A DNA stretch of 44,492 nucleotides. It comes from a virus (lineage: Duplodnaviria; Caudoviricetes). Positions 1 to 16,420 of the stretch are shown in pieces. Under the pieces are notes generated by a model. That model ran no database searches and had not been told where the DNA came from. It saw nothing but the letters and a program-made list of their open reading frames with translations. Both the position numbers and the translations under genes were made by a program. The stretch covers positions 1 through 44,492 of IMG/VR virus record IMGVR_UViG_3300033480_000005. One strand, written 5' to 3'. How positions within the stretch are numbered: the first letter of the stretch is position 1; every line of letters begins with the position of its first letter.

Positions 1-115
1 CGCGCCTGCGATGTTCGCGCCTGCGAGGTTCGCGCCTGCGAGGTCCGCGCCTATGAGATTCGCGCCTGCGAGGTCCGCGCGTGTGAGGTCCGCGCATGCG
101 AGGTCCGCGCCTGCG
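1..115. repeat. Terminal overlap, left copy (identical to 44378-44492); circular-assembly signature
   Basis: Direct comparison of the two ends: cgcgcctgcgatgttcgcg...ccgcgcctgcg, 115 nt identical. Confidence 0.9.
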
Positions 116-336
116 AGGTTCGCGCCTGCGAGGTTCGCGCCTGCGAGGTCCGCGCCTATGAGATTCGCGCCTGCGAGGTCCGCGCGTGTGAGGTCCGCGC
201 ATGCGAGGTCCGCGCCTGCGAGGTTCGCGCGTGTGAGCGATCTTCCTTCCTTTAAAGCTATCCCAACAAGATCTTTTAAAGTTGCGGCTTCAGCGGAAAA
301 GATCACCTCGTTGGTAAAACGATTACGTATTTTCAT
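1..336 (-). CDS. Pentapeptide-repeat protein, N-terminal part (continues at 44377 across the circular join)
   Basis: Not in ORF track. ATG at 336 reads MKIRNRFTNEVIFSAEAATLKDLVGIALKEGRSLTRANLAGADLACADL..., i.e. A(D/N)Lxx repeats encoded by 15-nt units; in frame with 43961-44377. Confidence 0.9.
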   Translation of the reverse strand, partial: MKIRNRFTNEVIFSAEAATLKDLVGIALKEGRSLTRANLAGADLACADLTRADLAGANLIGADLAGANLAGANLAGADLACADLTRADLAGANLIGADLAGANLAGANIAGA

Positions 337-338
337 GT

Positions 339-533
339 CTATTTAACCTTGTTCAATTCGTGCAATACACCTATCACCCTTGTCAACGACTCACGGCATT
401 CCTTGAGTTGCTTTTCAGCATCACGCCATCGACCTTCAATGTCGAAGTAGGCTGTTCGCCAGTTGCCGGCGCATTTACGCCAGCACTTGACTGCATGCCG
501 GGATTTCTTGGCGACATGTTTCCATACGAGCAC
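339..533 (-). CDS. Small hypothetical protein
   Basis: Fills the gap between co-oriented genes; purine-rich RBS upstream; start and frame uncertain. Confidence 0.45.
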   Translation of the reverse strand: MLVWKHVAKKSRHAVKCWRKCAGNWRTAYFDIEGRWRDAEKQLKECRESLTRVIGVLHELNKVK

Positions 534-539
534 ACTTTC

Positions 540-1118
540 CTATCCTTCCTCGGATTCGGTGAAACATTCCGGCATTGCGGATATGTCCCAATCTGGATCC
601 GTGATAATCCAAGTACAGTCTTTCTCTACCGCGAAAGTATTCATGATCTTTCGTCGCCAGTTGAAGGAACCACCAGGGAAGGCGGCAGTAGGCTTTCCTA
701 CATTCCACATCCCGGGGGCTATAATTCGGTTTAGTGGAACGCTAAGAATTCTGGCATTGCTTAGTTCGACAACGAATATCCATACCTTAGTAAAGGTTGT
801 TTCTTGGAGTCTTAGGTATTGGTCTCGATAGTGAAGATCGAAACCATGAACCAATTCATGCCACCCTCCCCACATAACGGGTGCATCTTTCGTTTTAACC
901 TCTACCCATCGGCGGCCATTAGGATTCGAGATGTCGAAGTCGGCAAGCACCGTGCAAAAACCGTTGTCGTTCTCAATCCTTGGCGCTCTTTCTCCATCGG
1001 GTCCGACAAAATCCTTGCTCGATATGATTGAACATCGACAACGTTTTAGAAGCATGGCTACAAGACTTTCCCCAAACTTCCCCCGTTCAACCTCCTTGGA
1101 GGTTCTGTCGTAACTCAT
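540..1118 (-). CDS. PD-(D/E)XK-superfamily (restriction-endonuclease-like) nuclease
   Basis: GKFGESLV ... LADFDI ... WVEVKTK matches the E...(P/A)D...EVK motif; ATGA overlap with the upstream methyltransferase. Confidence 0.7.
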   Translation of the reverse strand: MSYDRTSKEVERGKFGESLVAMLLKRCRCSIISSKDFVGPDGERAPRIENDNGFCTVLADFDISNPNGRRWVEVKTKDAPVMWGGWHELVHGFDLHYRDQYLRLQETTFTKVWIFVVELSNARILSVPLNRIIAPGMWNVGKPTAAFPGGSFNWRRKIMNTFAVEKDCTWIITDPDWDISAMPECFTESEEG

Positions 1119-1684
1119 GCTTCATTACCCCATCTTGTCCAGTTTCTTCTATTCCCTTCAGAAATAAGGTCAGCAGGGCGATTGCGGGCGAATAGTTCGA
1201 TGTATGGTCCCGAAGAAAGACTTTCGATTATGTTGTAGAATTCAACTGGCTTTGCGCTATGTTTGCTGCGGGGCCACTGAAAGGCATGCCCGCGCTGGTT
1301 ATATCTTTCAAGACCCTTTTTACCCTTCTCTGCCAGGATTAGGATTTCTGTAGAGGGTCTTAGCCAACGCCCAATTCCAAGACGTTCGCCCTTGAACCAA
1401 ACTATTTCACCAACCCATCTGAACCCCCAGGCATCAAGGACACAATGGGGAGCAGCTTCACGGATCATTGGCCATGTGGTCCACATCCATAGATGTGCAC
1501 CGTCTGGCAAGGCGAGTTTTCCAACTGGTAGCCTACAGATATCGTCTACAGACATAGTGGAATATTCGTGCCCAACCCCACCATCACATGCTTTATCGTT
1601 ATAACTCCAAGGAGGGTCGGCATAGATGCACCCGAATTTACCAAATCCAGAATCCAAACACGGAAGTAAACCTTCGGCCTGCAT
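1115..1684 (-). CDS. MT-A70 family N6-adenine methyltransferase
   Basis: IYADPPW, YSTMS, LWMWTT, WGF..VW.K, HSAKP and IELFAR motifs characteristic of MT-A70. Confidence 0.92.
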   Translation of the reverse strand: MQAEGLLPCLDSGFGKFGCIYADPPWSYNDKACDGGVGHEYSTMSVDDICRLPVGKLALPDGAHLWMWTTWPMIREAAPHCVLDAWGFRWVGEIVWFKGERLGIGRWLRPSTEILILAEKGKKGLERYNQRGHAFQWPRSKHSAKPVEFYNIIESLSSGPYIELFARNRPADLISEGNRRNWTRWGNEA

Positions 1685-1693
1685 CTCTATTTC

Positions 1694-1954
1694 CTATAGA
1701 TGAACAAAAACCCCGGCGAGACCCGGACCATCCGAGTTTTTATTCCCGCCGGGGTAAACGGAAGAAAGGGGGAGAATGAGCGAAATAGAGGGCCGGGACT
1801 TTGGGGTTATTGAGTGAGTTTGGGTCGACAGGCTAAATGGAAATCGTATTCGTCCCGGCCCGAAGGGTGAGTAAAGACAAGGCCCCGGCGATGCATCCCG
1901 GGGCTTAAACGACCCGCAGCAAAACCGGATACCAACCGCCAACACGCCAACCAC
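1694..1954 (-). CDS. Putative leader ORF crossing hairpin array 2
   Basis: GTG preceded by GGAGAGGG; stops about 10 nt before the MTase ATG; sequence does not look like a folded protein. Confidence 0.35.
   Translation of the reverse strand: MVGVLAVGIRFCCGSFKPRDASPGPCLYSPFGPGRIRFPFSLSTQTHSITPKSRPSISLILPLSSVYPGGNKNSDGPGLAGVFVHL
1706..1755 (-). terminator. Terminator-like large-loop stem upstream of the MTase gene
   Basis: 9-bp perfect GC stem (12 bp with G-U on the - strand) followed by a U tract (plus-strand A run 1706-1710). Confidence 0.55.
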
Positions 1955-2005
1955 GTTCCCTCTCCGACTTCTCTTCTTGCACGCCCCCTACCCCCCTAAG
2001 GCGTG
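1706..2005 (-). ncRNA. Hairpin array 2: putative structured antisense RNA(s)
   Basis: Stems 1710-1718/1747-1755, 1790-1799/1852-1861, 1882-1888/1898-1904 and 1980-1985/2000-2005; G-U extensions favour the - strand; loops and linkers are complementary to phage gene starts. Confidence 0.6.
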
Positions 2006-2011
2006 GTCCCA

Positions 2012-2225
2012 CCTACGAACGAACTACGACGACTCTACCAACTCCACGTAGAGCATCTTGGCTGATTCCTCTGCCAGCCAATTGCGTTCGGCCATGGAAA
2101 GTTGCTTCAATTCCACGATCGTCACGGGACGACCTGGGATATCGAAGAATTTCTTTATGGCCGAAATGCGAGTTATCTTCTCCAAGATGAACCTCCTCTA
2201 ATGATTGTTGCCTACGAACGAACTA
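2012..2225. repeat. 15-bp direct repeat CCTACGAACGAACTA (2012-2026 and 2211-2225)
   Basis: Exact copies; on the - strand each begins with the TAG stop of consecutive genes. Confidence 0.9.
2024..2185 (-). CDS. 53-aa hypothetical protein (MEKITRISAIKKFFDIPGRPVTIVELKQLSMAERNWLAEESAKMLYVELVESS)
   Basis: Not in ORF track; TTG start with strong AGAGGAGG RBS; fills the gap. Confidence 0.75.
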   Translation of the reverse strand: MEKITRISAIKKFFDIPGRPVTIVELKQLSMAERNWLAEESAKMLYVELVESS

Positions 2226-3074
2226 TCCGTTGCTTCCCGGTTCCGGTGGCTCCTCTGCCATCGATGCGGGTCTATTAAGGTCCAGGCTTCTCTTCACTCC
2301 TGGACTCCCGTTATTGTTTTCGCCGAAGATTTCCTCAACCGTAGAAGACTCCTCATTGATTGCCGTAGCGAATCCTCTAAGTATGGCAATGTCTTCGGCA
2401 TTGATATCGCTAACGTTATTTCGATTCAATTTGTGGAGGATCTGTTCCTCTGTTACTCCCTTCGTACGGAACCATTTGATGGACTGTTCACGTTTTTTTA
2501 GGACATCTGAGTTCTTCCCGACCACACGATCCATGGCAGCCTGAAGTACCGGCTTCCATACCGTCTGGGGAACAACCTTGAAGATACTGTTACGGAAGGC
2601 GATAGAAGCCGCAGCGTTGCATGTCATAAGGATCATGTCATCGTTGTAACGGCGACCATCCTTGCTGGTGATTCGTCGTTTCACTTCGGACGATACCGCC
2701 ACGTTTGATTCTAGGTCGTGGCAGACAGATGCGACGGTGACTTCCTTCTGTCCTATGTCCATCACCCGGGAAGCAACGCGCATATTGCCCCATGAGTTGG
2801 CGACGATCTCAGCTAGTCGTACTGACGGCCCCGTGATCGACTTGCCACCACGAGGCATGACGTAATAACATTCCGCCGCCGATTCTTCCGTATCTAGCGC
2901 GATAGCTGCTATCTTCCGTTTGCATGCGGTCAACTCTCGGGGGAACCTTTTGGCCGTGCTTATTTGCATATCGATCTCAGCACGACTAATCTGTTCCAGT
3001 GCATTCCCCTGGGTTACCGCTGGTAGCACTTCTACCTGTTGGGTATCTTCGAATTCGTCTCGCATGGTTCTCAC
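2223..3074 (-). CDS. Putative single-strand annealing/recombination protein
   Basis: EIDxQIxTAKRFPR and GPSVRLAE..WGN motifs of a widespread phage family; directly downstream of a Cas4-like exonuclease (Red-like pair position). Confidence 0.55.
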   Translation of the reverse strand: MRTMRDEFEDTQQVEVLPAVTQGNALEQISRAEIDMQISTAKRFPRELTACKRKIAAIALDTEESAAECYYVMPRGGKSITGPSVRLAEIVANSWGNMRVASRVMDIGQKEVTVASVCHDLESNVAVSSEVKRRITSKDGRRYNDDMILMTCNAAASIAFRNSIFKVVPQTVWKPVLQAAMDRVVGKNSDVLKKREQSIKWFRTKGVTEEQILHKLNRNNVSDINAEDIAILRGFATAINEESSTVEEIFGENNNGSPGVKRSLDLNRPASMAEEPPEPGSNG

Positions 3075-4120
3075 TCCTTCCTTTTTAGATAACTTTGAGG
3101 AATTACGATTACCGCCCCTTTAGTACGATCTTTGAATCGTTCCTTTCCAGCCTTGAGAGTAGACCCGTCCTGATTCAGTTCCTTCCATTTGTGGGAGTAC
3201 TTGTCTTCCAAGTCACCGATTCTTACCTCGGCGCATTCGAGGAACTCCTCTTGTGTGAGGATGTCTCCCACGGCGTTGAATGCCTCGCAGACATTAGCCA
3301 CTTGCCGCAATGTCCTCTGAGCGAGTGTCCAGCCAGGAATCTCCGTGCCTTCCTGGATCATCTCCCGGGCGTGGTTCCGGACGGCCTTCGCCCATGGTTC
3401 AATCATCTGGGCGAATTCCAGAGCCTTAGCTACCTTGGTAGGGTCAAGGACCGCGAGCGATTCCTTGGTAGCCGGGAGAACGTTCATCACCTCTTCCCGG
3501 AACTCGGGGCAAATAGACTTACCTCGGCAATAACGGCAGGCCGTTGCGCTGGGGCGAAGAATCTCCGGATGCTCGAAGGCAATATTTATGATCTTTTGGA
3601 TTTCGTCCGCGATCTTTTCCGGATGGGAGTAGGTTCCTATGAATTCCGTCTCCTCTCGGGGCTGGTAGACCCATACCGCAGCACGAGGAACGGCAAACTC
3701 CTGCATGGCAGCCCCGGCATAGGCTCTGGCCTGAAGTTCCACGGTATCTGTCCCAACTGGAATGCGCCCAAACTTGTTCTCTACAATGCGAACCTCACTG
3801 GGGTAGATACCCACGATATCGCAAGTTCCCCAGGTAACGGGTTCGTTGTCCTCGCCCCACAGAACCATGGTTTCTTCGTAGAGTACTTTAGAAGCCCCAG
3901 CCAACTTGTCGGCAGCGTATGTCCGTGCATTATCCACGGCATGCCGTTGTTCGTCGTTTAACCCCTCAAGTGAAATCGTTGGTTTGGTAGCGGAATGAAG
4001 AGTAGTTCCTTCAGCGGCTTCATCCGAAGACTCATCAGCCCTAAGCCCTTCGGTCATGCGATATGATCCGGGGCATAGTCTGAGGCGAGGAAGTTGCGAA
4101 GGCCCGCAGGGGTGATGCAT
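3071..4120 (-). CDS. DUF2800-type Cas4-like PD-(D/E)XK exonuclease
   Basis: N-terminal PS...CPGS, A.EGT.LH, WGTCD, ENKFG, Q..AYA and C-terminal CRYC.....CP (4-Cys Fe-S pattern). Confidence 0.85.
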   Translation of the reverse strand: MHHPCGPSQLPRLRLCPGSYRMTEGLRADESSDEAAEGTTLHSATKPTISLEGLNDEQRHAVDNARTYAADKLAGASKVLYEETMVLWGEDNEPVTWGTCDIVGIYPSEVRIVENKFGRIPVGTDTVELQARAYAGAAMQEFAVPRAAVWVYQPREETEFIGTYSHPEKIADEIQKIINIAFEHPEILRPSATACRYCRGKSICPEFREEVMNVLPATKESLAVLDPTKVAKALEFAQMIEPWAKAVRNHAREMIQEGTEIPGWTLAQRTLRQVANVCEAFNAVGDILTQEEFLECAEVRIGDLEDKYSHKWKELNQDGSTLKAGKERFKDRTKGAVIVIPQSYLKRKE

Positions 4121-4123
4121 AAC

Positions 4124-4372
4124 TCACCCCCTCACATCCACAAGTTGGCCAGTAGGGGATTCCTTCTCCTCGGGAAGTTGATGGAGGAATGAAAGGATTT
4201 CTTCGAATGCTGGTATAGCCTTACGATCTATGTAGAATGCTAAATGATGATCGAAGATGGCCTGTACGTAAGGATTGCCTTCTCTGTCTGTGACAACAGA
4301 GACATCCGCATGAACCTTGGATCGTGACCTCTGGTGATATCCTACCGATATTGAGTTTTCCATGTATGTCAC
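4124..4372 (-). CDS. Hypothetical protein
   Basis: Strong AGGAAAGGAAGG RBS; tiles the operon; start is GTG 4372 or ATG 4363. Confidence 0.7.
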   Translation of the reverse strand: MTYMENSISVGYHQRSRSKVHADVSVVTDREGNPYVQAIFDHHLAFYIDRKAIPAFEEILSFLHQLPEEKESPTGQLVDVRG

Positions 4373-4393
4373 CCTTCCTTTCCTATGCCTGTC

Positions 4394-4552
4394 CTATGTC
4401 TGGTCCCTATCGTCTTCGAAAACGTGGTCCTCAATCATCTCTGGATCTATTGGTAGAAATGAGGTGTACGGAGTACATGATGGACAATTGCGATCGTCCA
4501 TTTCTTCATCCAGAAGAACTGGGAAAATTACTCCGCATTCGGGACAACGCAT
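4394..4552 (-). CDS. Small zinc-ribbon protein (MRCPECG...CPSC)
   Basis: Two CxxC pairs; GGAGA RBS; true start reassigned to 4552, 3 nt after the upstream stop. Confidence 0.7.
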   Translation of the reverse strand: MRCPECGVIFPVLLDEEMDDRNCPSCTPYTSFLPIDPEMIEDHVFEDDRDQT

Positions 4553-4554
4553 GG

Positions 4555-5232
4555 CTATCTCCCGTGTTTCTTCAGGTACCAACGCAACCGCGATAATTGC
4601 CATTTTTGTTCGGCGGCCCCTGCGGCCCCTGCGGCGGCCCTTGCGGCCCCTGCGGCCCATGCGGCCCTTGCGGCCCCTGCGGCCCCTGCGGCCCCTGCGG
4701 CCCCTGCGGCCCATGCGGCGGCCCCTGCGGCCCATGCGGCGGCCCCTGCGGCCCATGCGGCCCATGCGGCCCCTGCGGCCCATGCGGCCCATGCGGCCCA
4801 TGCGGCCCACCCTGCGGCCCTTGCGTCGTCCCTTGCGGCGTTTAAAGTTGCTATATCAATTTCGCCACGGGCAAATTTCCGTGCCGCTTCTATAGCCTCA
4901 CGGGGCCGTTTGTCTTCGGGTCGTTCCTTCTCGAAGAACTTCAAGACATGTTCGGCGCAATCTGCTGCGTAGAGTCGCAACGCGCAATCGTCCAGGAACA
5001 CATTCCGTTCGATTGCCCAAATGCGATCTGCGGCCGGAACCTTCTTGAGCCCAAGGATGTCTATGGCCGTGAGTTTCTTTTTACGACCAAAAATCTCGGT
5101 CAATACCTCGCGGCTGTATCCCGGACACGGACCCCATGACAGCACGTCATCGATGGTTACGGATACCATCCGGTTCGACGTGCGTTTCGTATCCGGTTTC
5201 CTCGTCACAACACTACGCACCTTCCACCTCAC
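4555..5232 (-). CDS. Imm5-like phage protein with Ala/Trp/Gly repeat tail (start may be ATG 5169)
   Basis: [15 protein letters not shown]...P.D.RPR.AIEAAR..A.G motif, then AAW/AAG repeats and E.KWQ. Confidence 0.8.
4612..4822. repeat. Coding tandem repeat of 9/12-bp units GCGGCCC(C/A/T)T
   Basis: Visible tandem array encoding AAW/AAG/AAR; unit lengths are multiples of 3. Confidence 0.9.
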
Positions 5233-5479
5233 TTCCGATTTTCACCGCCCACGTCGCGGCAAGTCTTCCCGTCAGACGGTCCTTTCGTGGTAGCATCCGG
5301 ATCACCACTCCCTTGCGCTCCATGCTCGCCAGCCTCTTGTGGGCTCCTGATACGTATTGATCCAATTCCGCCCCCGTCGAGGCGGTGCCAATCGCCTTCA
5401 TGGCTGCGATTACGGACCGTTCGACCACGGGCAATCGCGGCTTTATTGCCCTGTATGCGAGCACGCTTGTTTGCTGCAT
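5213..5479 (-). CDS. Small winged-HTH DNA-binding protein
   Basis: TS..AY..I...L....R.V...TGAEL....HKRLA.ME.KG.V.....R....TGR.A..W pattern typical of phage wHTH proteins; AGAGGATAGG RBS. Confidence 0.7.
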   Translation of the reverse strand: MQQTSVLAYRAIKPRLPVVERSVIAAMKAIGTASTGAELDQYVSGAHKRLASMERKGVVIRMLPRKDRLTGRLAATWAVKIGSEVEGA

Positions 5480-6323
5480 TCCTATCCTCTTTCTTCCGTT
5501 GTATGTATGCTTTTATGTCCTGGTCCGCCTCTCGACCTATCCTCTGAATAAACGTTGTAAGACATGGACCGAAGTATAAAAGCATCCACTCCTTCATTGG
5601 TTCATTTGTCACCATATTGACGGTAGCTGAATATGTACATGCTCGAGCCTCTCCAAACTCGGGCGATATGACATACTCGCGGAACAGCCACTCCAGCAAT
5701 TCGTTATGCAAATGCTGGAGGTCGACGTTTTTTCTTCCCACCTCCCTATTCCAATGGGAGGCCACGATTGTTATCCTTTCATCCAACAGGCAGATCATTA
5801 GAGGGAGAATTGATCGATACCACGCGCCACATCTGGTGATGCTGTTGTCACCGGATATTTGCCCGTGAGCCCTAATCAGACATGGTACCGACCATTGTAG
5901 AGTCCCTTTGTCTAATGTTCCGGTAACATCATAATGGACCTTATCGGACCGTACACAGGTCAGAGTAATTCGTTTGATAGTGTTCGTCATCAACTCCAGA
6001 GTGATAGGCGAACATCTGTTCTCAAAAAACCGTAGCCCCCGTGACAAACTTCGCGATCCAGTGGGTACCTCGGGGGCTACGGAGGCCAGAGCGACCTCCG
6101 CTCGGGCCGTTCGTGGACAAAGATGGCCGCAGTCTCTTGTAGTGGTTCTGTGGGTCGAGGCTGCGGCCTGCCCCTGGGTGTCAGGGGCTGTCAGAGTAGT
6201 GAGATCGGAGTTAAAAGCCCCAGCTCCCATGGAAAGGTAAACCATATGACCTGTCTCGATATTGGCAGGCTGGGAGCCGGGACCTATTCTTCCAGGATCG
6301 AGACAACTAAGAAACTCACTCAT
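5229..6323 (-). CDS. Hypothetical protein with two plausible in-frame starts: leader ATG 6323 and ATG 5990
   Basis: One open frame; RBS GAGGAAAGG before 6323 and GGAG before 5990; protein-like sequence only from 5990 to about 5480; 3' end overlaps the HTH gene by 251 nt. Confidence 0.5.
   Translation of the reverse strand: MSEFLSCLDPGRIGPGSQPANIETGHMVYLSMGAGAFNSDLTTLTAPDTQGQAAASTHRTTTRDCGHLCPRTARAEVALASVAPEVPTGSRSLSRGLRFFENRCSPITLELMTNTIKRITLTCVRSDKVHYDVTGTLDKGTLQWSVPCLIRAHGQISGDNSITRCGAWYRSILPLMICLLDERITIVASHWNREVGRKNVDLQHLHNELLEWLFREYVISPEFGEARACTYSATVNMVTNEPMKEWMLLYFGPCLTTFIQRIGREADQDIKAYIQRKKEDRNAANKRARIQGNKAAIARGRTVRNRSHEGDWHRLDGGGIGSIRIRSPQEAGEHGAQGSGDPDATTKGPSDGKTCRDVGGENRK
6024..6082 (-). 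terminator. Attenuator-like terminator within the leader
   Basis: Perfect 12-bp stem CCGTAGCCCCCG/CGGGGGCTACGG, 29-nt loop, followed by U6 on the - strand. Confidence 0.65.
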
Positions 6324-6337
6324 ACGATTACCTTTCC
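6024..6337 (-). ncRNA. Hairpin array 1: structured 5' leader / putative antisense RNA(s)
   Basis: Stems 6030-6041/6071-6082, 6125-6136/6157-6168, 6170-6176/6182-6188 and 6219-6229/6271-6281; alternative pairings 6231-6240/6328-6337 and 6252-6260/6297-6305. Confidence 0.65.
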
Positions 6338-6343
6338 TCGGGG

Positions 6344-6371
6344 AGGATACCATCCTGAAAAAGAGTGTCAA
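6344..6371 (-). promoter_or_regulatory. Sigma70-type leftward promoter
   Basis: TTGACA (6371-6366), 16-nt spacer ending in TGG, TATCCT (6349-6344); sits in the AT-rich divergent region. Confidence 0.7.
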
Positions 6372-6428
6372 GGAAAAAAATTATTTTTTTCGCAAGAACG
6401 TGGTATGCTCCACGGAACGGAGGTAAAC

Positions 6429-6536
6429 ATGCAGAAAGTACGAGATTGGTTCCATAGAGTGTTGTTCAAGATCCTGCTCAAGACCGGGTTGATAGATAGG
6501 TTCTTGAGCGATGACGCAGAGGATGAGCTTGGGTAG
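6429..6536 (+). CDS. 35-aa hypothetical protein
   Basis: GGAGGTAAAC-ATG; extended -10-like TGGTATGCT at 6401-6409. Confidence 0.6.
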   Translation: MQKVRDWFHRVLFKILLKTGLIDRFLSDDAEDELG

Positions 6537-6540
6537 AGAT

Positions 6541-6879
6541 ATGCTTGCAGCCTACAACTGGACCGTCGCAAAAATTTTGCTGGCCGTGGTGCTCACAAGC
6601 ATCTTACTCGGGTTTGCCGGCGTCGCGGCAGTGTCGGGGTACATATGCTGGATGTATCAATCCAGGGAATCAAAGAATAGCAGGGCTGTAACCACCTCAC
6701 AGACTGACCTTCTTCCATCTGGGAGGCCAAAAGGGTATTGGGATAAGTTTATTCGTCCGAGCACTTCCCCGACTTCGCCATCTTCTTCAAAGCGGCCATC
6801 TTCCCCTTCTTCTTCGCCTTCCTCATGGGGAGATCTTCCTGATCCGGATATTCATTCGCCCAACGATCAGCGATCTTAG
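6541..6879 (+). CDS. Putative membrane protein with Ser/Pro-rich tail
   Basis: Hydrophobic ILLAVVLTSILLGFAGVAAVSGYICW segment; the tail is antisense to 6749-6928. Confidence 0.5.
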   Translation: MLAAYNWTVAKILLAVVLTSILLGFAGVAAVSGYICWMYQSRESKNSRAVTTSQTDLLPSGRPKGYWDKFIRPSTSPTSPSSSKRPSSPSSSPSSWGDLPDPDIHSPNDQRS

Positions 6880-6928
6880 GATGCTTCATCCACATGAATC
6901 GGCGTTGCTTTTCAGACTGAAAGGGCAT
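6749..6928 (-). CDS. 59-aa basic phage protein (MPFQSEKQRRFMWMKHPKIADRW...)
   Basis: Not in ORF track; MPFxSxxQRR..HP.IA..W is a recurrent phage morphogenesis-region motif; TAATG coupling to the upstream gene. Confidence 0.8.
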   Translation of the reverse strand: MPFQSEKQRRFMWMKHPKIADRWANEYPDQEDLPMRKAKKKGKMAALKKMAKSGKCSDE

Positions 6929-8529
6929 TACTGATTTCCTCCTGCAAGAATTGCCCGCATGACCTGATTGGGAATTACCCTTTTGGCATACGGTGCTCCT
7001 GCGATCCGAATTCCCTTGGGCGCTGAATGCTGCAAGACTGCTTCAGCGACTCTACCAGCGACATCTGCGGCCCGGGTACCAGCTCCTATCGTCCCTCCCC
7101 ATCCTAATCCAAGCCACTTGCGTAGCTCTCGTCCTCCTACTCCAGTGAAATACCGATCCATTTCATTTGAGAATTTCGTACCCTTGGCTCGTTCCCCTTG
7201 CGCGATATCTCGTTCGAGTCGGCGACGAATGAGCGTTTCCTTATAGGGGCGAATCTTCTCGATGGGTTCCGCGATGGCGTTCATGATCGCGTTTGATGCG
7301 ACTTTCGCATCAGTGCTCGTCCCCTGTCCTGCAATCAGGTTTGCCGTCGCCTTCTGTTCAGCGTCAGACAGCACCTTTAGGTTTTCGCGCATCCATTCGC
7401 CCGTTCGTTTCGCGAGACTTTTGGCGATGTCATCAACTTCTTGTGCCGTCTTGCCCATGGCGAGCCCTTGGAGATAGCGATCGGCGTTCGCCATGGATTC
7501 GCTTCCGATTACATTCCGGAAGCCGTGCCCAAGTTCCTCCTGCCAGATTTTCCTTAGTCCCGGCACGTACTGGAGGTTCGCAGCCTTCACGCCGAAGGCG
7601 GGATGGACCACATCCGAGATCATGCGGAAGGCTGGCGTTTCCGTGCTGGAAAAAGCACGTTCGATATTCTCGGGTGTGGCTCTTTCAGCTTGCCGAATCC
7701 AACCTTCCCCGGCAACCTTGGGCGCTATCCGTTCCGCAGCTTGCGGGGGCAATCTCATGGCGACTTCGGTACCCGAGACCACACTTGAGGTTTCAGGCAT
7801 AGCCGCGAGTCGTGCCTTTGCGAGATCTTCGGCAGCCACCTTAACGGCATTGGAAGCCTCACGCGCCGCGATTTCCTTGTCTGATCCGGTGATTGCTCGT
7901 TCCAGGGCGTAAGGCATTCTCAGCGGGTTGGCCGTACCTAATTTTTTAAATATCGGTTTTGCCGCCGAGGCAACCCCTCGCAATGCACCTTCCGAAATCC
8001 CTCCTAGAGCCGTTTCAACTCCGATATCGCGTAATGCCTCGCCTCCAGTCTGCTTGAATCCAAGTAGTCTACCAAGGCCTTGTTTTGCTGATTCTGCCAG
8101 ACCACTACCGAGAGCCGCGCCACCAGCTCCAGCTGCAACAGCCCCAGGTCCAGTAGCCAATGCCGCCCCACCGGCCATAGTTCCACCAACGCCAGCGGCT
8201 ACTCCCTTACCGATGTCTGTTCCTATGTCCGTGATATCCTTCCAGTCGAAACCGGTGGGATCGAGCTTACGCCATACCTTTTCCCCAGGTCGACGAACAT
8301 TGAAGTCGTAATCCGCGCCGAGTTCCTTAACCTCGAATCCCTTTTCACGAAGATATTGCGCTGCGGCCCGTGAATTGGGAGCAAGGTTCATGACGTAGGT
8401 GCGCGGGACTTCGGGATGCTGTTCGTCGACAACGTTAGCATTTTCCTTCCTAGCATATTTGGACCAAGTGTCATCCTGAGGAACAGAAGATGCTTCCGAA
8501 CGAATATATGAATCCCATTTATCAGGCAT
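6928..8529 (-). CDS. Probable DNA-ejection / internal virion protein
   Basis: Last large gene of the structural operon; Gly/Ala-rich hydrophobic stretch (GVAAGVGGTMAGGAALATGPGAVAAG). Confidence 0.65.
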   Translation of the reverse strand: MPDKWDSYIRSEASSVPQDDTWSKYARKENANVVDEQHPEVPRTYVMNLAPNSRAAAQYLREKGFEVKELGADYDFNVRRPGEKVWRKLDPTGFDWKDITDIGTDIGKGVAAGVGGTMAGGAALATGPGAVAAGAGGAALGSGLAESAKQGLGRLLGFKQTGGEALRDIGVETALGGISEGALRGVASAAKPIFKKLGTANPLRMPYALERAITGSDKEIAAREASNAVKVAAEDLAKARLAAMPETSSVVSGTEVAMRLPPQAAERIAPKVAGEGWIRQAERATPENIERAFSSTETPAFRMISDVVHPAFGVKAANLQYVPGLRKIWQEELGHGFRNVIGSESMANADRYLQGLAMGKTAQEVDDIAKSLAKRTGEWMRENLKVLSDAEQKATANLIAGQGTSTDAKVASNAIMNAIAEPIEKIRPYKETLIRRRLERDIAQGERAKGTKFSNEMDRYFTGVGGRELRKWLGLGWGGTIGAGTRAADVAGRVAEAVLQHSAPKGIRIAGAPYAKRVIPNQVMRAILAGGNQ

Positions 8530-9791
8530 TAGCGCTCCTCGGTTGCATTGGGATGATCACGCAAAAAAGCCTGTACTTCATTCACGGGAATGTCGTAGAT
8601 CACACCATTCACAGAATAGGCTCTCGTATTTCCTGCCGATTCACCCTCATCCATGAGTGGGGCCACGTTATAGCCCATTTTCCCGTACATCTTGAGTACG
8701 CCATTCTTACGTGTCTTGACGATCTCCTCGAAGTTGTCGAGCAGGGCTTTGAATTGCTCCGGATCTTGCGCGATATTTGGTCCAGCCTGTCGCAATCGAT
8801 TGAACTCTTGATTGCTCACGGCGACACCCGAAATGCTTTGAACCTGCCGGGCCATGAGTTCCACGAGATTGGCATTGGTGACGGCCATGTTGGGTTCGGC
8901 AATTCCGACATTCACCAGGATGTTTTGGATGCGACCTTGAATCGGGCCGATCCCAGACTCAATCTCGGGAAGTTTGGATCGAATGCGATTGATGGCCGAA
9001 AGTGCATTATCTGCAAAAATCAATTGTTCCTGTCCCTTGGGTGGCAACCTGCCGGCCATCATGTCCGCTCGATCCTGGGACCGGAGTCGTTGTTCCTCCA
9101 GGAAGTTGCGATAGTCTTGATTGGTTGCCATCTGATCCCGTCGCAGTTCACGGTTCTCTTGCCCTTCCAACGCCTTCATCTGCATGCCGGCATTCCCGGT
9201 CATTGCCGCCCCGAGTCCGGAACCACTTTGAAGGTTGGGAACTGGTGGCGCACCGGTACGAATGGCCGATCCGGTGGTCAGAAGAAGTTTCATGGCATTT
9301 GACATGCCTTGTTCGCCGGCTTGCAGCCCTCGTCCCATACGATCGGCTTTAAGGATCTTCTGGAGTGTGTCCCGATAGCCGGTATCCCCCATCTCCGACT
9401 GCGGCCTATTCTGCGGCCTTTGGGGTGTTTGGGTAAGTTTGGGCAACGGTGATATTTCATCCGCATTGTAAGGCTTGAAGTCCGGCCCTGGAAATTGCTG
9501 AAATTGCTTGGCTTGTCTTGAAAATTCAGCATCCGGCAACGTATTTGATGTTGGCGTGAGCCAACCTTTCATCTGTTTCGGAATACCCTGGATGAGCACA
9601 TTGGGCGGAGTAGATTTGCCAGCATCCTCAATGGCATTTCGTGTGGCTTCATCCATCATGTCAGGAGGAGGATAGCCAGTATCTTCAATGGCATTCTGTC
9701 GGCGAATCTCGTCAGGCGTCAATTCCTGTCGAGCCATGGGAGGAATAGGTTGAGTGTTTGAAAACCTTCGAATGTACTCGTAGATGTCCAT
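8529..9791 (-). CDS. Probable DNA-ejection / internal virion protein
   Basis: Position; helical Q/E/R-rich sequence; ISGVAVSNQEFNRL resembles the SG.AVS..E..RL motif common in podovirus ejection proteins. Confidence 0.65.
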   Translation of the reverse strand: MDIYEYIRRFSNTQPIPPMARQELTPDEIRRQNAIEDTGYPPPDMMDEATRNAIEDAGKSTPPNVLIQGIPKQMKGWLTPTSNTLPDAEFSRQAKQFQQFPGPDFKPYNADEISPLPKLTQTPQRPQNRPQSEMGDTGYRDTLQKILKADRMGRGLQAGEQGMSNAMKLLLTTGSAIRTGAPPVPNLQSGSGLGAAMTGNAGMQMKALEGQENRELRRDQMATNQDYRNFLEEQRLRSQDRADMMAGRLPPKGQEQLIFADNALSAINRIRSKLPEIESGIGPIQGRIQNILVNVGIAEPNMAVTNANLVELMARQVQSISGVAVSNQEFNRLRQAGPNIAQDPEQFKALLDNFEEIVKTRKNGVLKMYGKMGYNVAPLMDEGESAGNTRAYSVNGVIYDIPVNEVQAFLRDHPNATEER

Positions 9792-9800
9792 GTTTACCTC

Positions 9801-10763
9801 TCAGAATCCGCCCAAAAGTCCGCCGCCGGAATAGGCTGAAAAGGCCGTATCGCCAAGACCACCGATTCCCTGTCCAATACCTGCAAGTGCATTGATCTTG
9901 CCTTGCCGTTCCGCATCCTTCGCCCATCCATATTGGTTATAGGCTCCGGACAATGCGCCAGCCTTGTTCATAGAATTTTGGAATTCCTGTTGGTTCATCT
10001 GGTTAGGATACTGTTGGTTGTAGACCTTGAACTGATTCGCCGTTTGCGTATTTTGGTTCGCGGTGTTTTGGGCATTTTGGGCATTCCAGAGGTTGGCTTG
10101 ATTTTGCGATTGAGCATTCTGGAGGCCTGTCTGCGCGGCGAGTTGTCGATTAGCCAGGTTGTACCGATTGATGATTTCGGCGGCCTGTCGCGAGGTGTCC
10201 ACGTCCTGGCCTCGAATCTCGCCGGCGAGGTTGCCTGACTGCATGATGGCGTTGAGCCGGTTCTGGATGGCCTGCTTTTGAAGGTCAGACCCCATTCCCC
10301 GGCCCAACTCCGCCGCTTGTTGGCCAGAGGCCAACCGGGCTCTTAGCTCGGATCCGCCCCCGAGCCTACCTCGTGCGGCAAGATCTTGTAACATAGACTC
10401 AGAGCCCCTATGCTGCTGCATCTGCATGGCATTCTGAGCCTCGATTGCCGCAAGTCGATCCGCCTCGCCTAAACCCTTATCCGCAATTTCCTGTAACTGC
10501 CCCAGGGCCTTGTATTGGGCTTGCTTCATTGCCGGCGTATCGACGAGGTTTTTAACCTCTTCCGGAGCCTCTTGCCGGTATATCTCAGGCTTGTATTGGG
10601 CGACAAGTTTCCATTGCTCGGGTGTGATCTTGGATTTGTCGAAATTGGGTTCTTGTACGGCCTTGATAACTTCAAGAGCCTTCTTGTATTCATCCATCCC
10701 ACCGCCGCCGATGAGAAGTCCGCCGATTCCAGCCCCAAGAGCCCCGAGTGATTCACCTATCAT
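9801..10763 (-). CDS. Probable DNA pilot/ejection protein
   Basis: Gly-rich hydrophobic N- and C-termini, Q/N/A-rich coiled coil, LAARGRLGGG motif. Confidence 0.7.
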   Translation of the reverse strand: MIGESLGALGAGIGGLLIGGGGMDEYKKALEVIKAVQEPNFDKSKITPEQWKLVAQYKPEIYRQEAPEEVKNLVDTPAMKQAQYKALGQLQEIADKGLGEADRLAAIEAQNAMQMQQHRGSESMLQDLAARGRLGGGSELRARLASGQQAAELGRGMGSDLQKQAIQNRLNAIMQSGNLAGEIRGQDVDTSRQAAEIINRYNLANRQLAAQTGLQNAQSQNQANLWNAQNAQNTANQNTQTANQFKVYNQQYPNQMNQQEFQNSMNKAGALSGAYNQYGWAKDAERQGKINALAGIGQGIGGLGDTAFSAYSGGGLLGGF

Positions 10764-10771
10764 TTTTCACC

Positions 10772-12532
10772 TCATGCCGGCTTATTGCCGCCCAAAGTCG
10801 TTTTATTAACCTTCTTCTTCTTGTTCGCTTCGATTGCACCGGAGACCATGAAAGGCTCTACGCTACTCACGGCCATCTGGGGGTTGGTAAGGTTCCCCAT
10901 TAGGTCGCCAGTTGGCGTAGAACTTGAAATTGTCCTCGAAAGTTGGGAGGTCATTTTCCCGATGTCGAGTGGGTTGAAGGACCATTTATTTTTATCGTAT
11001 TCCCGTTCGGCCTTTTTGGCCTTGGACCACCAATCCTGGACGGCCTCAGTCGGAAGGTCATTCCATAACTGTTGTCGTGCAGCCTCATCGGCAAGATACT
11101 TCTCTGTGTCGAGGTTCAAGGTTGGATCTCGATAGGGGTCGAGTTGCGTCATCCCTATCTGGTCGAGTAGTTGCGCAATGCGGTTGTATTGGGCGACCTC
11201 CTCGTCCGTAGCGACATTGGCTGCATTTGGTGCAATTCCGGGGTCGACCGTGGCATAAGGAGACAGGGAAGCCATCTCATAGGTGGCGGGCAACGTGTCT
11301 GCGGTATTGGTGTCACCCGCGCCGTAGAGTGGCATGTAAGACGAGTATTTCCCTTCAGTCCTAGGGTTGAAAAGGGCTTCCAAGGCGTCTTGCCGTGCAA
11401 GCATGAGCTGTCGTTGCGCCTTCGTGGACCCCGGATGCGCCTTCATCCACTTGCTCCAGCCGCCTTCAGGCTCACGAACCGGAGTTCCATGGGGCGATTG
11501 GGTGAGTTGAAGCAATTCCAGATCCTTGATAGGCGCGTACTTGGGATCATTCATAATCGTATCCCAAGCGTTTTTGGCCTCAGTCATGCCCTTTTGGATG
11601 TCCGAGCCGGTGATTGCCTCAATACCAGGGGCCACCTCTGCACTAGGAAGTTGGCCCGATGCCGTGAGTTGTGCCAATGCGTCTTCAACGGCCTTCTTCT
11701 TGGTCTCGTAGTTCGTCCCGGTTACCCGCTCGTTCCAGGTGCCTTCTATGCCGGTTTGGGTGGCCTTTGTCCATTCCTTGGCCGCCTTTTGGATATCCGA
11801 CTCCTCTTGCGCTCTCTGCTTGGCAAATGCCTCGGTCTCAGTTCCTTGGGCCTTAGCCCAGTCTGAAGCCTCCTTGGCCTGCGCCTGGAGTGGGGTCAAT
11901 TGAGATACCCACCCGGCATCCCTTGCAAGCTGTGCGGCGTCATAGCGGGCCTTCCCTGGCGTCTGGGACGGGTCTACTGCCTGGACATAGCCGGCTAGCT
12001 CTTTGCCCGCCCTAAGGGCCTGGGAACGGCCGTAGAGGTCTTCTATTGCCTGTTGGGACTTGGCGTATTCCTGCGCGTCAAGTGCCTGCGGGCCGGTGTA
12101 GGTCGTCCCGAGCAGGTTTTTGGCCTCGTCCAAACCAGTACCCGTTTGGACAGCCTGCCCGAAGAGGTTAGCCCCACCCATGCTTTCCCAAGTACGGGAA
12201 GGCCCGGCTTGCTCCTGGAAGGCATCCCGTAACCCCTGAATATTCTGCCGCTCGGTGGTCGTACCCGTCTTGATGGGGTTCAGCAGTTTTTCTTGTAGCG
12301 TCCCACCCGTTTGTTCATAGGCAGAAGTGACGGGGGCCGCGGTTGTCTGGTCAGCCTCAGCCCCCGTCTGGGGGGAAGATTGGGTGGACGGTCCTTGTTC
12401 ATAGCCGGTTACCGAAGGGGCCTGCGATAGCTGGACGATATTCGAGGTGGGCTCTGGACCCATCCCCGTCAGGTAATCTTGATTCTGCTCGAATGGCGTC
12501 TTACCTTGTGCAGCAGAGGCATCCCATACCAT
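10772..12532 (-). CDS. Probable internal virion protein
   Basis: 586 aa, A/Q/T-rich and helical; lies between nozzle and pilot genes. Confidence 0.6.
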   Translation of the reverse strand: MVWDASAAQGKTPFEQNQDYLTGMGPEPTSNIVQLSQAPSVTGYEQGPSTQSSPQTGAEADQTTAAPVTSAYEQTGGTLQEKLLNPIKTGTTTERQNIQGLRDAFQEQAGPSRTWESMGGANLFGQAVQTGTGLDEAKNLLGTTYTGPQALDAQEYAKSQQAIEDLYGRSQALRAGKELAGYVQAVDPSQTPGKARYDAAQLARDAGWVSQLTPLQAQAKEASDWAKAQGTETEAFAKQRAQEESDIQKAAKEWTKATQTGIEGTWNERVTGTNYETKKKAVEDALAQLTASGQLPSAEVAPGIEAITGSDIQKGMTEAKNAWDTIMNDPKYAPIKDLELLQLTQSPHGTPVREPEGGWSKWMKAHPGSTKAQRQLMLARQDALEALFNPRTEGKYSSYMPLYGAGDTNTADTLPATYEMASLSPYATVDPGIAPNAANVATDEEVAQYNRIAQLLDQIGMTQLDPYRDPTLNLDTEKYLADEAARQQLWNDLPTEAVQDWWSKAKKAEREYDKNKWSFNPLDIGKMTSQLSRTISSSTPTGDLMGNLTNPQMAVSSVEPFMVSGAIEANKKKKVNKTTLGGNKPA

Positions 12533-12534
12533 TT

Positions 12535-12903
12535 TCAGGCTCCAAACACCGTTAGGTTTACCGTTGCACCGACCACGGAGATATCCGCCCAGTTAACGGT
12601 AATTGCAATCGTGGTCTCATCGATGACTCGCCAACAAGTAGACCAAGGGGAGTAGGCTGAAGTCCAATCGATGATTACTTTTTTGGCCTTACCACGGATA
12701 TTGGTCTTTATTACTTTTTCCAACCCATGATTCGTGACGTAACTGATCTCAGCCGCATTCATGTTCTCGCGGAAGTTGGTGTTTCCCTGAAGGCATTGAG
12801 TGAGTTCATCAATCTGGCCTGATAGGGACTCGATATGCGGCCTTATCGCCGATGGGATCTTGCCCAACTCGTCCGTAGGTCTTTTGAAGTCAGATGGTCT
12901 CAT
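12535..12903 (-). CDS. Small tail-associated protein
   Basis: Coupled to the nozzle gene; N-terminal helix plus a beta-rich HGL...domain. Confidence 0.6.
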   Translation of the reverse strand: MRPSDFKRPTDELGKIPSAIRPHIESLSGQIDELTQCLQGNTNFRENMNAAEISYVTNHGLEKVIKTNIRGKAKKVIIDWTSAYSPWSTCWRVIDETTIAITVNWADISVVGATVNLTVFGA

Positions 12904-15446
12904 CTCGGTAATTTCGTCGTGATGTCAGTCAAAGGTCTATACGTCAATGCCATACTGATTAAAGCGAAATGCTCTCGTGCATATGCATGCTTGTAGAGCA
13001 ATGAAAGAGCGGCACACTTACGATAGTTGGTCGGAACCGAGTTGCGAAGCATGGCCTGAATCGAAGGGTCATCATCCCCCCAACCACCTTCGCCGTATAA
13101 TCCAAGACCCCAGCCACGATCGGCCTCCTGCCGGACTGAATGGTAAAGCACATCCGATAGGTGATTATTGGCGAATCCAATTCCGTGATGGAATCCTACC
13201 TGATGATGCAGTGCTCCATCATCCTCGAACATGAATTGGTATGAGGTGAAGTCCTTGATGACGTGCGGATTGTTCGCCGTCTGCGGTCGCCACCGGAGAA
13301 TCGACGTAATCGGCATTTCAGCCGTAGCCGCCCCATTGACGAGGCCGGGTATGTTCTCCGATAGAGTTACGGTGTAAGATCCCCCACCGTTATTTACGCA
13401 GGTCTCTACGCATGCGGCATCCGATCCCTGGACAATGACCCATCCCACGCCGAAAGTCGCTAGCGCGTAGGAATAGGCCACCGTCGCCTGACTCACCGTA
13501 TATCCATCGGCATCGGTGGTCGTCGTGACGCCAGAAAGCGTAACGGCAATGGATTCGTCGGAATAATCGTTGAAGCTGGTTACGTAGCTTTTTCGTTCCT
13601 TGAGGACGTAATACTCATCGGCTTTGGCCAAGTAGAGTTTATCTTCCGTCCTCATGAGGTGAGTGCAACCGATGTTCTTCCTCCAAGGTCCGGACCATTG
13701 GCCGCCTTCAATCAGGAAGTTGTAGACCCATCCCACCGTTGCATAGGTGTCTATGGAGGATTCAGGTGCCCAAAGGATGTACAAACGTTCCGATGGGTAA
13801 TGCGTGGCATGACAAATGGTCTGGAAATTTGGAGTGGCAAAAATCTCTTTAATGGTGTTGTCCACTTGGAAGCTGATAATCGCGACGCCGTTCTCATCTA
13901 CCCGGACAACGCCTTGATCCGAAAGGCCCACCGCCTGATTGTTCAAGACACCCCAACTATCCGGAGCAAAACATCGGATGGTCGGGTCCATAGGCTTGAT
14001 TGAGAAATTGTCGATCGTATCTCCGGATAGCCGGTAGATTCCTACCTCCTTGACGATGATGACCGAGTCTTGAAGAGGAATCACCCGCATGATCGCGGAG
14101 TTCTGACTTCCAACATCATCGTAGTTATTCCACGGAACTGCGTCGGGTTGATCCACCCTGGATTCACATAGTCGATTCGGATTCTCGTCAGCCTTGCTTT
14201 GAACCGTGGTTCCGCTGGTGGGTAGAACCGGAGTGAAACATGCGCCACATCCGGCATCATTCGCCGTAACGGCAAACTGCGCCGTTGCCAACGTGCGTCC
14301 CCAAATGGTGAAATGGCCCGGCTCCTCATTTACGTCATAGAAATACGTGGCGTAATAGGAAGACGAGGCAAGATTGATGATCTTACAAAGGGATTGTGTC
14401 GTGTCCTCGACGTTGTCGGCAGCCGTGCCACCTGTGAACAACTGGAATTTCTTGTTTGCTACGCTTTCCGCGGTGCTCGCCGTGTAGGTCTCCGAGCCGA
14501 TTGTGATTGAATCCGTATCCGCTACGATTCCAGTCAATGAAATAAGGTGAAGGTCTAATATCTGCTCGCGTTTGGTCGCACCGTAAAGAGTGATCCCCTT
14601 GAAGGTGCAAAGATCCACGGCATAAGGAGGAGGATCATTCCCTTGGTCGATTGTATTCTCGTTAGGATTCGAATAGAGATTAGAACCATCAACTATCGAT
14701 AGGTTGTCGGCGAATGAGATATACCCGTTGGTGATGTCCCCGGCGACAACCCCCACCTCTTGCACGAGGTAGCATGAGTCCCCCACATCGACGGCCAAGG
14801 CGGCATAATCGGTACGATATATGCGGTAGTAATCTCCGGCCTGAATCCCATCAGGAATCGAAGAGGTTAGGTCGATATCCTTCGCCACCGCCGCATCGCC
14901 GACGATGATGTAGAGGGGCGTCGGATAACTCTCTATCGGCCTGCCATTGGCATCCTTGATGAGCCATGTCAGACGATATCCCATGAACTTCGTTGCCGGC
15001 AGGACTGCTCCAGTCCCGGTGTGAAGGGCCAATGTGAGGTCCAGACCACGAGGACATCCCGCAGGTCTCACCGTCCCAGGAAGCGCATCGAGCCGTTGTA
15101 TTCCAGTCGTAGTAGGGAAGTAGAGGCATTTTTGCTCCTCCATGAATCGCATCCGATGACCAGTCGGAGGAGAGGCGGAATACGATAACGTGGTCAGGGT
15201 TCCAGCCACGTCATACTTGAGCGCGGTTCCATCCAATGCGATGAGCGTGTCGTTATATTCCCCGAGTGCCACAACGGTACTTGTACTCGTGGCATACCGA
15301 TTCATCCCCCGGCGGTTCTCGGCAATGCCCGGCCTGTTTGCGACGGAATTTTCCATCACCTCCAAAGAGCCTTCGGGATCGGTGATGGGATTGGAGTTGG
15401 TCCCGAGCCCGTTAATCTTGCTGGAGATGATCTGTAGTTTGCCCAT
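12900..15446 (-). CDS. Tail nozzle / packaged-DNA stabilization protein (P22 gp10 / T7 gp12-like)
   Basis: GL.T.......PEG....MEN....RPG....RRG N-terminus; beta-propeller-like composition; follows the adaptor; start moved to ATG 15446 (TGATG overlap). Confidence 0.75.
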   Translation of the reverse strand: MGKLQIISSKINGLGTNSNPITDPEGSLEVMENSVANRPGIAENRRGMNRYATSTSTVVALGEYNDTLIALDGTALKYDVAGTLTTLSYSASPPTGHRMRFMEEQKCLYFPTTTGIQRLDALPGTVRPAGCPRGLDLTLALHTGTGAVLPATKFMGYRLTWLIKDANGRPIESYPTPLYIIVGDAAVAKDIDLTSSIPDGIQAGDYYRIYRTDYAALAVDVGDSCYLVQEVGVVAGDITNGYISFADNLSIVDGSNLYSNPNENTIDQGNDPPPYAVDLCTFKGITLYGATKREQILDLHLISLTGIVADTDSITIGSETYTASTAESVANKKFQLFTGGTAADNVEDTTQSLCKIINLASSSYYATYFYDVNEEPGHFTIWGRTLATAQFAVTANDAGCGACFTPVLPTSGTTVQSKADENPNRLCESRVDQPDAVPWNNYDDVGSQNSAIMRVIPLQDSVIIVKEVGIYRLSGDTIDNFSIKPMDPTIRCFAPDSWGVLNNQAVGLSDQGVVRVDENGVAIISFQVDNTIKEIFATPNFQTICHATHYPSERLYILWAPESSIDTYATVGWVYNFLIEGGQWSGPWRKNIGCTHLMRTEDKLYLAKADEYYVLKERKSYVTSFNDYSDESIAVTLSGVTTTTDADGYTVSQATVAYSYALATFGVGWVIVQGSDAACVETCVNNGGGSYTVTLSENIPGLVNGAATAEMPITSILRWRPQTANNPHVIKDFTSYQFMFEDDGALHHQVGFHHGIGFANNHLSDVLYHSVRQEADRGWGLGLYGEGGWGDDDPSIQAMLRNSVPTNYRKCAALSLLYKHAYAREHFALISMALTYRPLTDITTKLPR

Positions 15447-16414
15447 CAGTAGCTCATACCCTTGCCGTAGATCGTTCTCCGAATTCCAGCCATGACATGG
15501 GGTGAGTTCCAAACGGAGACCGTGACATTTTCGCTTTCGTCACGTTTCGAGAAAAGCGTGTATTGCCTTTGGAACATGGCTTGTAGTTCCGCATTAGATA
15601 TGGTGAACCGTTCGGGGTCCGTGCTCTCGAGGAGTCGGCATACGGTAGCCTGCGCAAGAACGGGGTGGAGTTCACGAGGGAGACCCGGAAGGGCGCAAGT
15701 CTCAGAAACGCACACCCAATCTCCTACCTCCACCGGCAATCGTCCGATTGTGGTCCCGTTGAGGTCCGCGGCGGTGAATGTCATGTCATCACCAGACGCC
15801 ACACTGGCCGTGATATTCCACGCCTTGAGTTCAGCTCCGGAATACTGCGAATGGATGTCATAGGTCAATGAAGTCGTCCAGGTCGCGGGGAAATTAGAGG
15901 CAAGCACGATAGCGCCCGTCGCCGGCGTGTAGCTTGTTATCTGCCGGCAGGCAGTCGATAGGACGAGTTCACCTGGACGCAGGAAATAGATGATTTCCAA
16001 ATATCCGGAGAAAGAGCCATCCACCGGTAGCATCTGGATGTGATTGCCTTCAAAGGTGTAGCCGAGCGGCGTCCCATCCCCGGTAGATGTGTGGCAAGGT
16101 TGTTCCTCTAAAGGAATAGGGTAGAGGTTATGTTTCGTACCATCGGCCTCTACCCATAGAACATCCCTGATTCGATTGTGCATGGCTCGCACGGGTAGAC
16201 GATATTTCGTGGCGGTGGTAAGGGTCACTCGTTCCCTGGTGACGTAGAATTCCTCGCGGCACCTTTGGACAACCTCGTACATCGTGGTCAACGCCTCTTC
16301 GTTAATGACGTTGAGGATGTCCGAGTCGGAAGTGCCCGAGGAATCGGTATCATTGAAGCCGCCACGTTGCCGGACTACGGCAATTAGCTCCTCACCCGTG
16401 TAGAGTCGAGCCAT
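15446..16414 (-). CDS. Head-tail adaptor (tail tubular protein A-like)
   Basis: ELIAVVRQRG...SDSDILNVINE N-terminal helices, Y.LP, and LP.E.HP.L motif. Confidence 0.75.
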   Translation of the reverse strand: MARLYTGEELIAVVRQRGGFNDTDSSGTSDSDILNVINEEALTTMYEVVQRCREEFYVTRERVTLTTATKYRLPVRAMHNRIRDVLWVEADGTKHNLYPIPLEEQPCHTSTGDGTPLGYTFEGNHIQMLPVDGSFSGYLEIIYFLRPGELVLSTACRQITSYTPATGAIVLASNFPATWTTSLTYDIHSQYSGAELKAWNITASVASGDDMTFTAADLNGTTIGRLPVEVGDWVCVSETCALPGLPRELHPVLAQATVCRLLESTDPERFTISNAELQAMFQRQYTLFSKRDESENVTVSVWNSPHVMAGIRRTIYGKGMSY

Positions 16415-16420
16415 TTGCTT

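Follow-up and report, generated by a model that had tools for sequence, protein, structure and literature searches.

The structured leader at the head of a minus-strand operon of this uncultured tailed phage on balance appears to yield an antisense RNA of the C4/CI type, predicted to terminate at 6024, that would act both in cis and in trans to block translation of the two likely early operons. The leader is a real regulatory RNA, a conclusion that rests on one genome and on computation, and it is probably a new multi-target variant of phage antisense control. In what follows the complementarities, the open reading frame and the genome layout are computed and the folds are predicted, and from these we infer the processing, termination, repression and biological role of the RNA.

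The direct terminal repeats of the window (the whole stretch of DNA analyzed, 44,492 nt) identify it as a complete virus record. It encodes a P22-like portal, a terminase, a tail spike and an O-like replication initiator, as well as a VRR-NUC nuclease, a DUF2800 nuclease and an MT-A70 methylase. Nearly all genes lie on the minus strand; the plus-strand exceptions are a block of five genes (36283-37780) and two small frames (6429-6879). The operon led by the leader runs from 6323 through recombination genes and then round the circle to the replication genes. Neither a tyrosine integrase nor an HTH_3 repressor was found anywhere in the complete genome, using probes that were positive in 14 of 14 control genomes, and family scans of 44 and of 30-31 frames name no integrase or repressor. 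The leader RNA likely keeps both early blocks and the nuclease gene off; no repressor protein was found in the genome. Also observed in the genome are a 9/12-nt tandem repeat coding an Ala/Trp/Gly run within an Imm5-like gene (4593-4835), a 15-nt repeat spanning the terminal repeat (44319-44492/1-295), and a 12-pair terminator-like stem (37794-37821) where the plus-strand operon and the replication operon converge. The two small plus-strand frames belong to a divergent unit (6373-6879) that stands back to back with the leader promoter and comprises an A/T inverted repeat (6373-6391), an extended -10-like site (6401-6409) and a strong ribosome site. The frames themselves encode 35 aa (6429-6536) and 122 aa (6511-6879), the longer one including a hydrophobic stretch, and neither has a family match.

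The leader is preceded by a sigma-70-type promoter candidate (TTGACA-16-TATCCT with an extended -10, 6371-6344 on the minus strand) that matches the consensus at 10 of 12 positions and has the top score among the 22 promoter-like sites listed in a scan covering 1-20000 and 25000-44492 (20001-24999 lies outside the scan). Beyond it lies the cis target of the first hairpin loop (6337-6297), comprising a ribosome-binding site (6337-6328), an ATG (6323-6321) and a second block (6305-6297): within the loop, 6240-6231 is an exact 10-nt complement of the ribosome site and 6260-6252 an exact 9-nt complement of the second block. The stem of this hairpin, 6281-6271/6229-6219, consists of 10 Watson-Crick pairs and one G-U, and lengthens to 15 pairs if wobbles are allowed. 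Three further stems follow (6188-6182/6176-6170, 6168-6161/6132-6125 and 6082-6071/6041-6030, the last with U6). The promoter-like site, both pairs of complementary blocks and all of these stems had been described in a sequence-only reading of this DNA, and each was confirmed at its place.

The hairpins differ in character. Hairpin 1 (6285-6215) has a closing stem of 11-15 bp and is predicted to carry its two seeds (~6262-6252 and 6243-6231) in two loops. Hairpin 2 (6188-6170) has 7 bp and a 5-nt loop for which no target was found, and hairpin 3 (6168-6125) has 8 bp and an open 28-nt loop (6160-6133) that matches a distant site at 17 of 18 positions. Hairpin 5 (6082-6024), the predicted terminator, has a G+C-rich stem of 12 bp, a 29-nt loop (6070-6042) and the U6 tract; such a loop is unusual for an intrinsic terminator, and the hairpin is unlisted by the terminator scan because the loop limit of that scan is 8. 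Hairpin 4 (6100-6080) overlaps the first 3 nt of the terminator stem, and its small stem (6085-6080/6100-6095) is the exact complement that had been reported, but a role for it as the switch is not supported: forcing it costs 7.8 kcal/mol, and in the ensemble the terminator pairs keep a probability of 0.97-1.0 against it. Hairpin 4 barely competes with the terminator and was rejected as the main antiterminator. The linkers between the hairpins were also rejected as guides (68/300 and 219/300 shuffles are equally good), and Rfam gives 0 matches at the gathering score in the window.

The leader as a whole (6340-6015, minus strand) folds at -133.8 kcal/mol, with a z of -4.41 and none of 100 shuffles equally good. 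Folding recovers the two competing folds proposed earlier, one with the ribosome site hidden (-133.6 kcal/mol) and one with hairpin 1 formed (-131.0 kcal/mol), separated by a gap of 2.6; in the full leader the ribosome site is paired at a probability of 0.98. When growing prefixes are folded, the anti-RBS duplex is already complete at 6231, ahead of the synthesis of the hairpin 1 3' arm, so that the order of synthesis favors the hidden state too. Without its first ~55 nt the RNA is predicted to fold hairpin 1 as a three-way junction with inner stems of 4-6 bp and one seed in each loop. A GGT (6284-6282) lies at the base of the extended hairpin 1 stem; in C4 RNA, RNase P cuts at a GGW motif at the 5' base of the closing stem, but a motif of 3 nt has little weight.

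The longest complement of loop 1 in the genome is found not in the leader but 14 kb away round the circle, where an exact 13-nt block (36269-36281, plus strand) covers the ribosome site directly before ATG 36283. This ATG opens the first gene of the one long operon on the plus strand. The second seed pairs with 36295-36308 with one bulge and one mismatch, giving a trans target of 36269-36308. The energy of the two-block duplex is equal in cis and in trans (-35.2), and the two blocks of the cis and trans targets stand 33 and 32 nt apart, respectively, against 22 nt in the loop. When 4415 windows are ranked against the anti-RBS half of loop 1, 36268(+) comes first and the leader itself second; by duplex energy with the whole loop, 36268 ranks third. 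Of 271 Shine-Dalgarno start contexts, the plus-strand reading of the loop itself, 36283 (-25.9) and 6323 (-23.8) take the first three places, followed by a fourth at -20.1, with a mean of -10.2. The two-block score reaches its genome maximum of 18 at 36269, a value attained by 13 of 400 shuffles with block ends that were set after the trans site had already been seen; the runners-up (17 and 16) both lie on non-coding strands, and the 13-nt block alone is matched by 55 of 300 shuffles. By score alone the distant match is modest. Its weight comes from its position, since it outranks all 271 start contexts except the loop's own reading. A weak promoter candidate (36237-36264, 8/12, spacer 16), recognized by eye and below the scan threshold, stands ahead of the trans target, and with it both targets of loop 1 would sit at the very 5' end of their messages. 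A ribosome site at 6419 was considered as a third target and rejected (co-fold gain 0.0). The pairing of loop 1 with its own leader is borne out as first described, but that account was incomplete, as the loops also match the second early operon and the nuclease gene.

A rival explanation is a cis-only attenuator: a single operon would be gated by the leader frame together with the two folds, and a shared ribosome-site motif plus chance would account for the distant matches. The cis duplex does dominate the ensemble, GGAAAGG occurs 11 times in the genome, neither the trans block alone nor loop 5 alone is significant, and the nuclease target is missing from a sibling contig. However, the complementarity is longer in trans than in cis (13 versus 10 nt), the trans site lies on the first start codon of the other early operon, and its second block has the same spacing. 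A cis switch would also have little need of a 15-bp closing stem on which both seeds are displayed; on this evidence purely local control seems unlikely. A role at the level of DNA or of the other strand is very improbable. Here a protein would recognize the repeated blocks as its operator at the two early starts, the third copy being inverted, or loop 1 would supply the translation start (ribosome site plus ATG 6246) for a plus-strand frame of 96 aa. Loop 1 read on the plus strand indeed presents a ribosome site and then ATG 6246, in frame with the 35-aa frame at 6429, and a 9/12 plus-strand promoter-like site occurs at 5908-5935, but such sites are no commoner than chance would give (3 found, 2.4 expected), codon use in the 96-aa frame is neutral and no family matches it, and the genome has yielded no repressor to bind an operator. 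Furthermore, the block spacing in the loop differs from that in the targets by about one RNA helix turn, and the G-U pairs of the stems fit a minus-strand RNA.

In the antisense reading loops 3 and 5 add a further target region. Their best sites, 3867-3850 for loop 3 and 3832-3805 for loop 5, lie 17 nt apart (together 3867-3805, minus strand) inside the DUF2800 nuclease gene (4120-3071), ~250 nt past its start. The 17/18 match of loop 3 has an ungapped score reached by none of 300 shuffles (by duplex energy, 2 of 29 reach it) and is the best among 14 large-loop hairpins on the minus strand, where 12 others score 9-13 against its 15; a score this high is attained by 5 of 153 hairpins in 25 other loci, where no neighboring hairpin pair among 19 shares a target. 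For loop 5 the site is the genome-wide best under both scorings, with imperfect pairing, and taken alone it is not significant genome-wide (249/300 shuffles; 11/26 by duplex energy), while locally only 5 of 2000 and 6 of 1500 shuffles do as well. The score of loops 3 and 5 as a pair is reached by 0/300 shuffles. The idea that the two loops are relics of a related nuclease gene was rejected: the mismatch hits the second position of a codon, and a 1-nt bulge is required for loop 5 to pair.

The mid-gene position of these sites is not the usual one for a translation block, which suggests another use for them, namely that loops 3 and 5 are sensors: the nuclease mRNA, or a piece cut from it, would bind the nascent leader, open the terminator and titrate the antisense RNA, a positive feedback in the direction of lytic growth. 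The loop of the terminator is loop 5 itself, and pairing along most of its 29 nt would strain the stem. Against this, co-folding of the leader with the nuclease site pairs loop 3 and leaves loop 5 unpaired on a terminator stem of 9-10 bp, and binding in trans would have to outrun closure of the hairpin; a sensor function therefore appears quite improbable. In one contig of run X2 the segment 2226-4117, which includes the target of loops 3 and 5, is replaced by 1878 other bases, and the sibling proteins P0001 and P0003 are unchanged across both loops. If that contig and those proteins belong to one genome, the loops persist without their nuclease target, unless the swap is recent or the new module has like sites. 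It is observed as well that the DUF2800 and phrog_3657 genes are swapped as one module in the sibling contig.

The leader is crossed by an open reading frame. As first noted, the frame from ATG 6323 stays open through the whole hairpin array; it spans 364 codons (6323-5229, minus strand) with in-frame starts at 6323, 5990 and 5765. The gene that it enters had been placed at 5990, and this start is not upheld: a search with the 5990 part against 1.84 billion representatives returns the sibling and three distant proteins, the distant relatives match only from residue 81 of the 5990 product, and they align from their first residues with a gene that begins at GTG 5765. ATG 5990 is accordingly rejected as the start of the conserved gene, which codes for ~95 aa (5765-5466; three distant relatives, E 5e-18 to 6e-7) and is preceded by a Shine-Dalgarno signal of its own, as scored with an E. 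coli probe. Its product is predicted to be helical, in a low-confidence model (pLDDT 65.6, pTM 0.34) that gives no Foldseek match at E 0.001 or better and no usable Atlas match. Ahead of it are 186 open codons, and 6323-5766 is stop-free in just 4 of 6000 dinucleotide shuffles. The leader frame also stays open in two sibling proteins. Its codon use is not coding-like, as would be expected if the frame is maintained so that ribosomes can pass rather than for its product, and its length suits translation-coupled termination. One cluster of relatives (P0019/P0020) is called with an in-frame upstream extension of 95-102 residues; no sequence similarity was found between these extensions and the leader frame, and they at most hint at a shared layout. 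At its other end the 5765 gene lacks a stop at the point where the related proteins finish and continues for ~83 codons (5479-5229, minus strand), overlapping an 88-aa phrog_1123 gene (5479-5213); the siblings share this run-on, which is stop-free in 432 of 6000 shuffles.

From these elements a course of events can be proposed. In the nascent RNA, loop 1 is predicted to reach back and pair with the ribosome site of the leader while the 3' arm of hairpin 1 is still to be made. With ATG 6323 untranslated, hairpin 5 would form and most transcripts would end at ~315 nt. Processing would then remove the first ~55 nt, upon which hairpin 1 would fold and display both seeds, and the processed RNA would bind both newly made leaders and the beginning of the plus-strand operon message. 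More tentatively, loops 3 and 5 might bind escaped read-through mRNA within the nuclease gene and lead to its decay or to polarity. A ribosome loading at 6323 first would cross all the hairpins and prevent termination, and the recombination/replication operon would thus be opened. The off state could serve either immunity, with the phage carried without integration, or the shut-off of early genes as lytic growth turns to its late phase; extrachromosomal prophages do exist (PMC7157519).

The operon contains one other long non-coding gap (2023-1705, minus strand), with a G-rich first half (44 G/96) and a C-rich second half (36 C/95). The gap ends in a stem plus U5 (1755-1705), folds no better than shuffles (z 1.08) and has no Rfam family. 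Within it, 1821-1811 is an exposed 11-nt exact complement of the leader start-codon region (6322-6312), a result reached by 2 of 3000 shuffles, and three other 11-mers with such complementarity occur in coding DNA. The stem at 1755-1710 was rejected as another open guide loop, as it folds internally. A tentative and rather doubtful extension of the antisense reading would make the leader a multi-guide RNA repressor that replaces a CI-type protein, its three tandem loops silencing two early operons at their starts and the nuclease gene in its coding region while gating its own operon by translation-coupled termination, with the RNA from 2023-1705 as an antagonist that pairs with the segment open in the off fold. 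A tailed phage that does not integrate would then switch its life cycle by RNA only.

Searches of viral contigs, metagenomes, species genomes and cultured phages turned up no diverged relative of the leader, and hence no covariation is available. In viral contigs no relative is found by scanning with the 5990 frame, the 5765 family, the DUF2800 protein or the 432-aa virion protein, and a scan with phrog_3657 gives one locus, at 39%. Alignments of the DUF2800 protein return 24 viral and 11 metagenome loci, that is, the window's own contig and 34 others at 24-34% identity; in 27 of these 34, plus the locus L002, no like hairpin array is found upstream of the DUF2800 gene (the remaining 7 have <900 nt upstream and were left out of the screen). 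The seed-gap-antiseed pattern occurs in 10 loci, all of them rejected as chance matches in coding DNA of unrelated phages, and a 22-nt pattern taken from the window is found in 0 viral contigs. No relative came from species genomes, and none from cultured phages searched by DNA or with the 360-aa virion protein. In one unrelated phage locus (L035:4972-5027) a 14-bp G+C stem with an open, C-rich 28-nt loop stands upstream of recombination genes and is possibly an anti-RBS hairpin.

If the antisense reading is true, one leader RNA governs the starts of two distant early operons, with further loops on a coding region, and a full-size tailed phage can run its central on/off decision by RNA alone; the leader would also be a compact natural design for multi-target riboregulators, testable with reporters. 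A literature search whose scope left out most subscription journals, the primary P4 and P1 papers included, found no multi-loop leader aimed at several operons.

The leader works like the C4 RNA of P1 or the CI RNA of P4 but is a member of neither, because it has no model match, its second seed lies on the other side of the start, and it comes with no seqC-like site, no Ash domain and no integrase. As far as the available portions of the cited papers go, C4 and CI RNAs act on the operon that encodes them (PMC5320573, PMC12197685, PMC4825925, PMC10111431). The C4 antisense RNA of phages P1 and P7 (RF01695) is described in PMC5320573 and PMC12197685 and entered in a table of PMC2864571, and its other seed binds upstream of the ribosome site (PMC5320573, in the part available). 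The leader resembles C4 in the closing stem with two seed loops (as predicted for hairpin 1 folded alone), in a seed that covers the ribosome-binding site with exact complements of 10 and 13 nt, and in a target within its own operon and probable excision from a longer transcript. Unlike C4, it has a second seed that pairs 12-26 nt after the start codon in both targets rather than upstream of the ribosome site, a second, distant target operon, and two extra hairpins that carry matches of their own; no icd or ant gene was found in the genome. The C4 covariance model gives no match up to E 10 in 6500-5900 and none elsewhere in the genome.

The P4-like architecture that the sequence-only reading had recognized stands as regards the two near-equal folds, the seqA-like target and the in-frame leader, but not as regards membership or a seqC-like site. 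The CI RNA of P4, with seqA and seqC and the nested eta and kil, is described in PMC4825925 and PMC10111431 (again in the portions available). Shared with it are a constitutive-type promoter, an upstream leader target and a premature terminator, all predicted here, as well as nested in-frame starts at which translation would prevent termination, and replication genes downstream. Shuffles equal the best seqC-like site in 6023-5700 in 39 of 300 cases for the whole loop, 202 of 300 for the first seed and 47 of 300 for the second, and no homology to Phage_ASH (Eta/Kil) was found in the proteins searched. Unlike P4, an integrating satellite, the present phage is complete and tailed, encodes a portal and a terminase and has yielded no integrase, and its leader frame starts inside the same transcript rather than from an upstream late promoter. 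A likeness in trans action on a read-through message is to IsrK of Gifsy-1, which according to the accessible part of PMC4825925 activates translation of its own long form, and for which Rfam gives no match here: both are short terminated leader RNAs with two alternative folds that act, or would act, on their own read-through message, but the pairing of the present leader covers the ribosome site and would repress.
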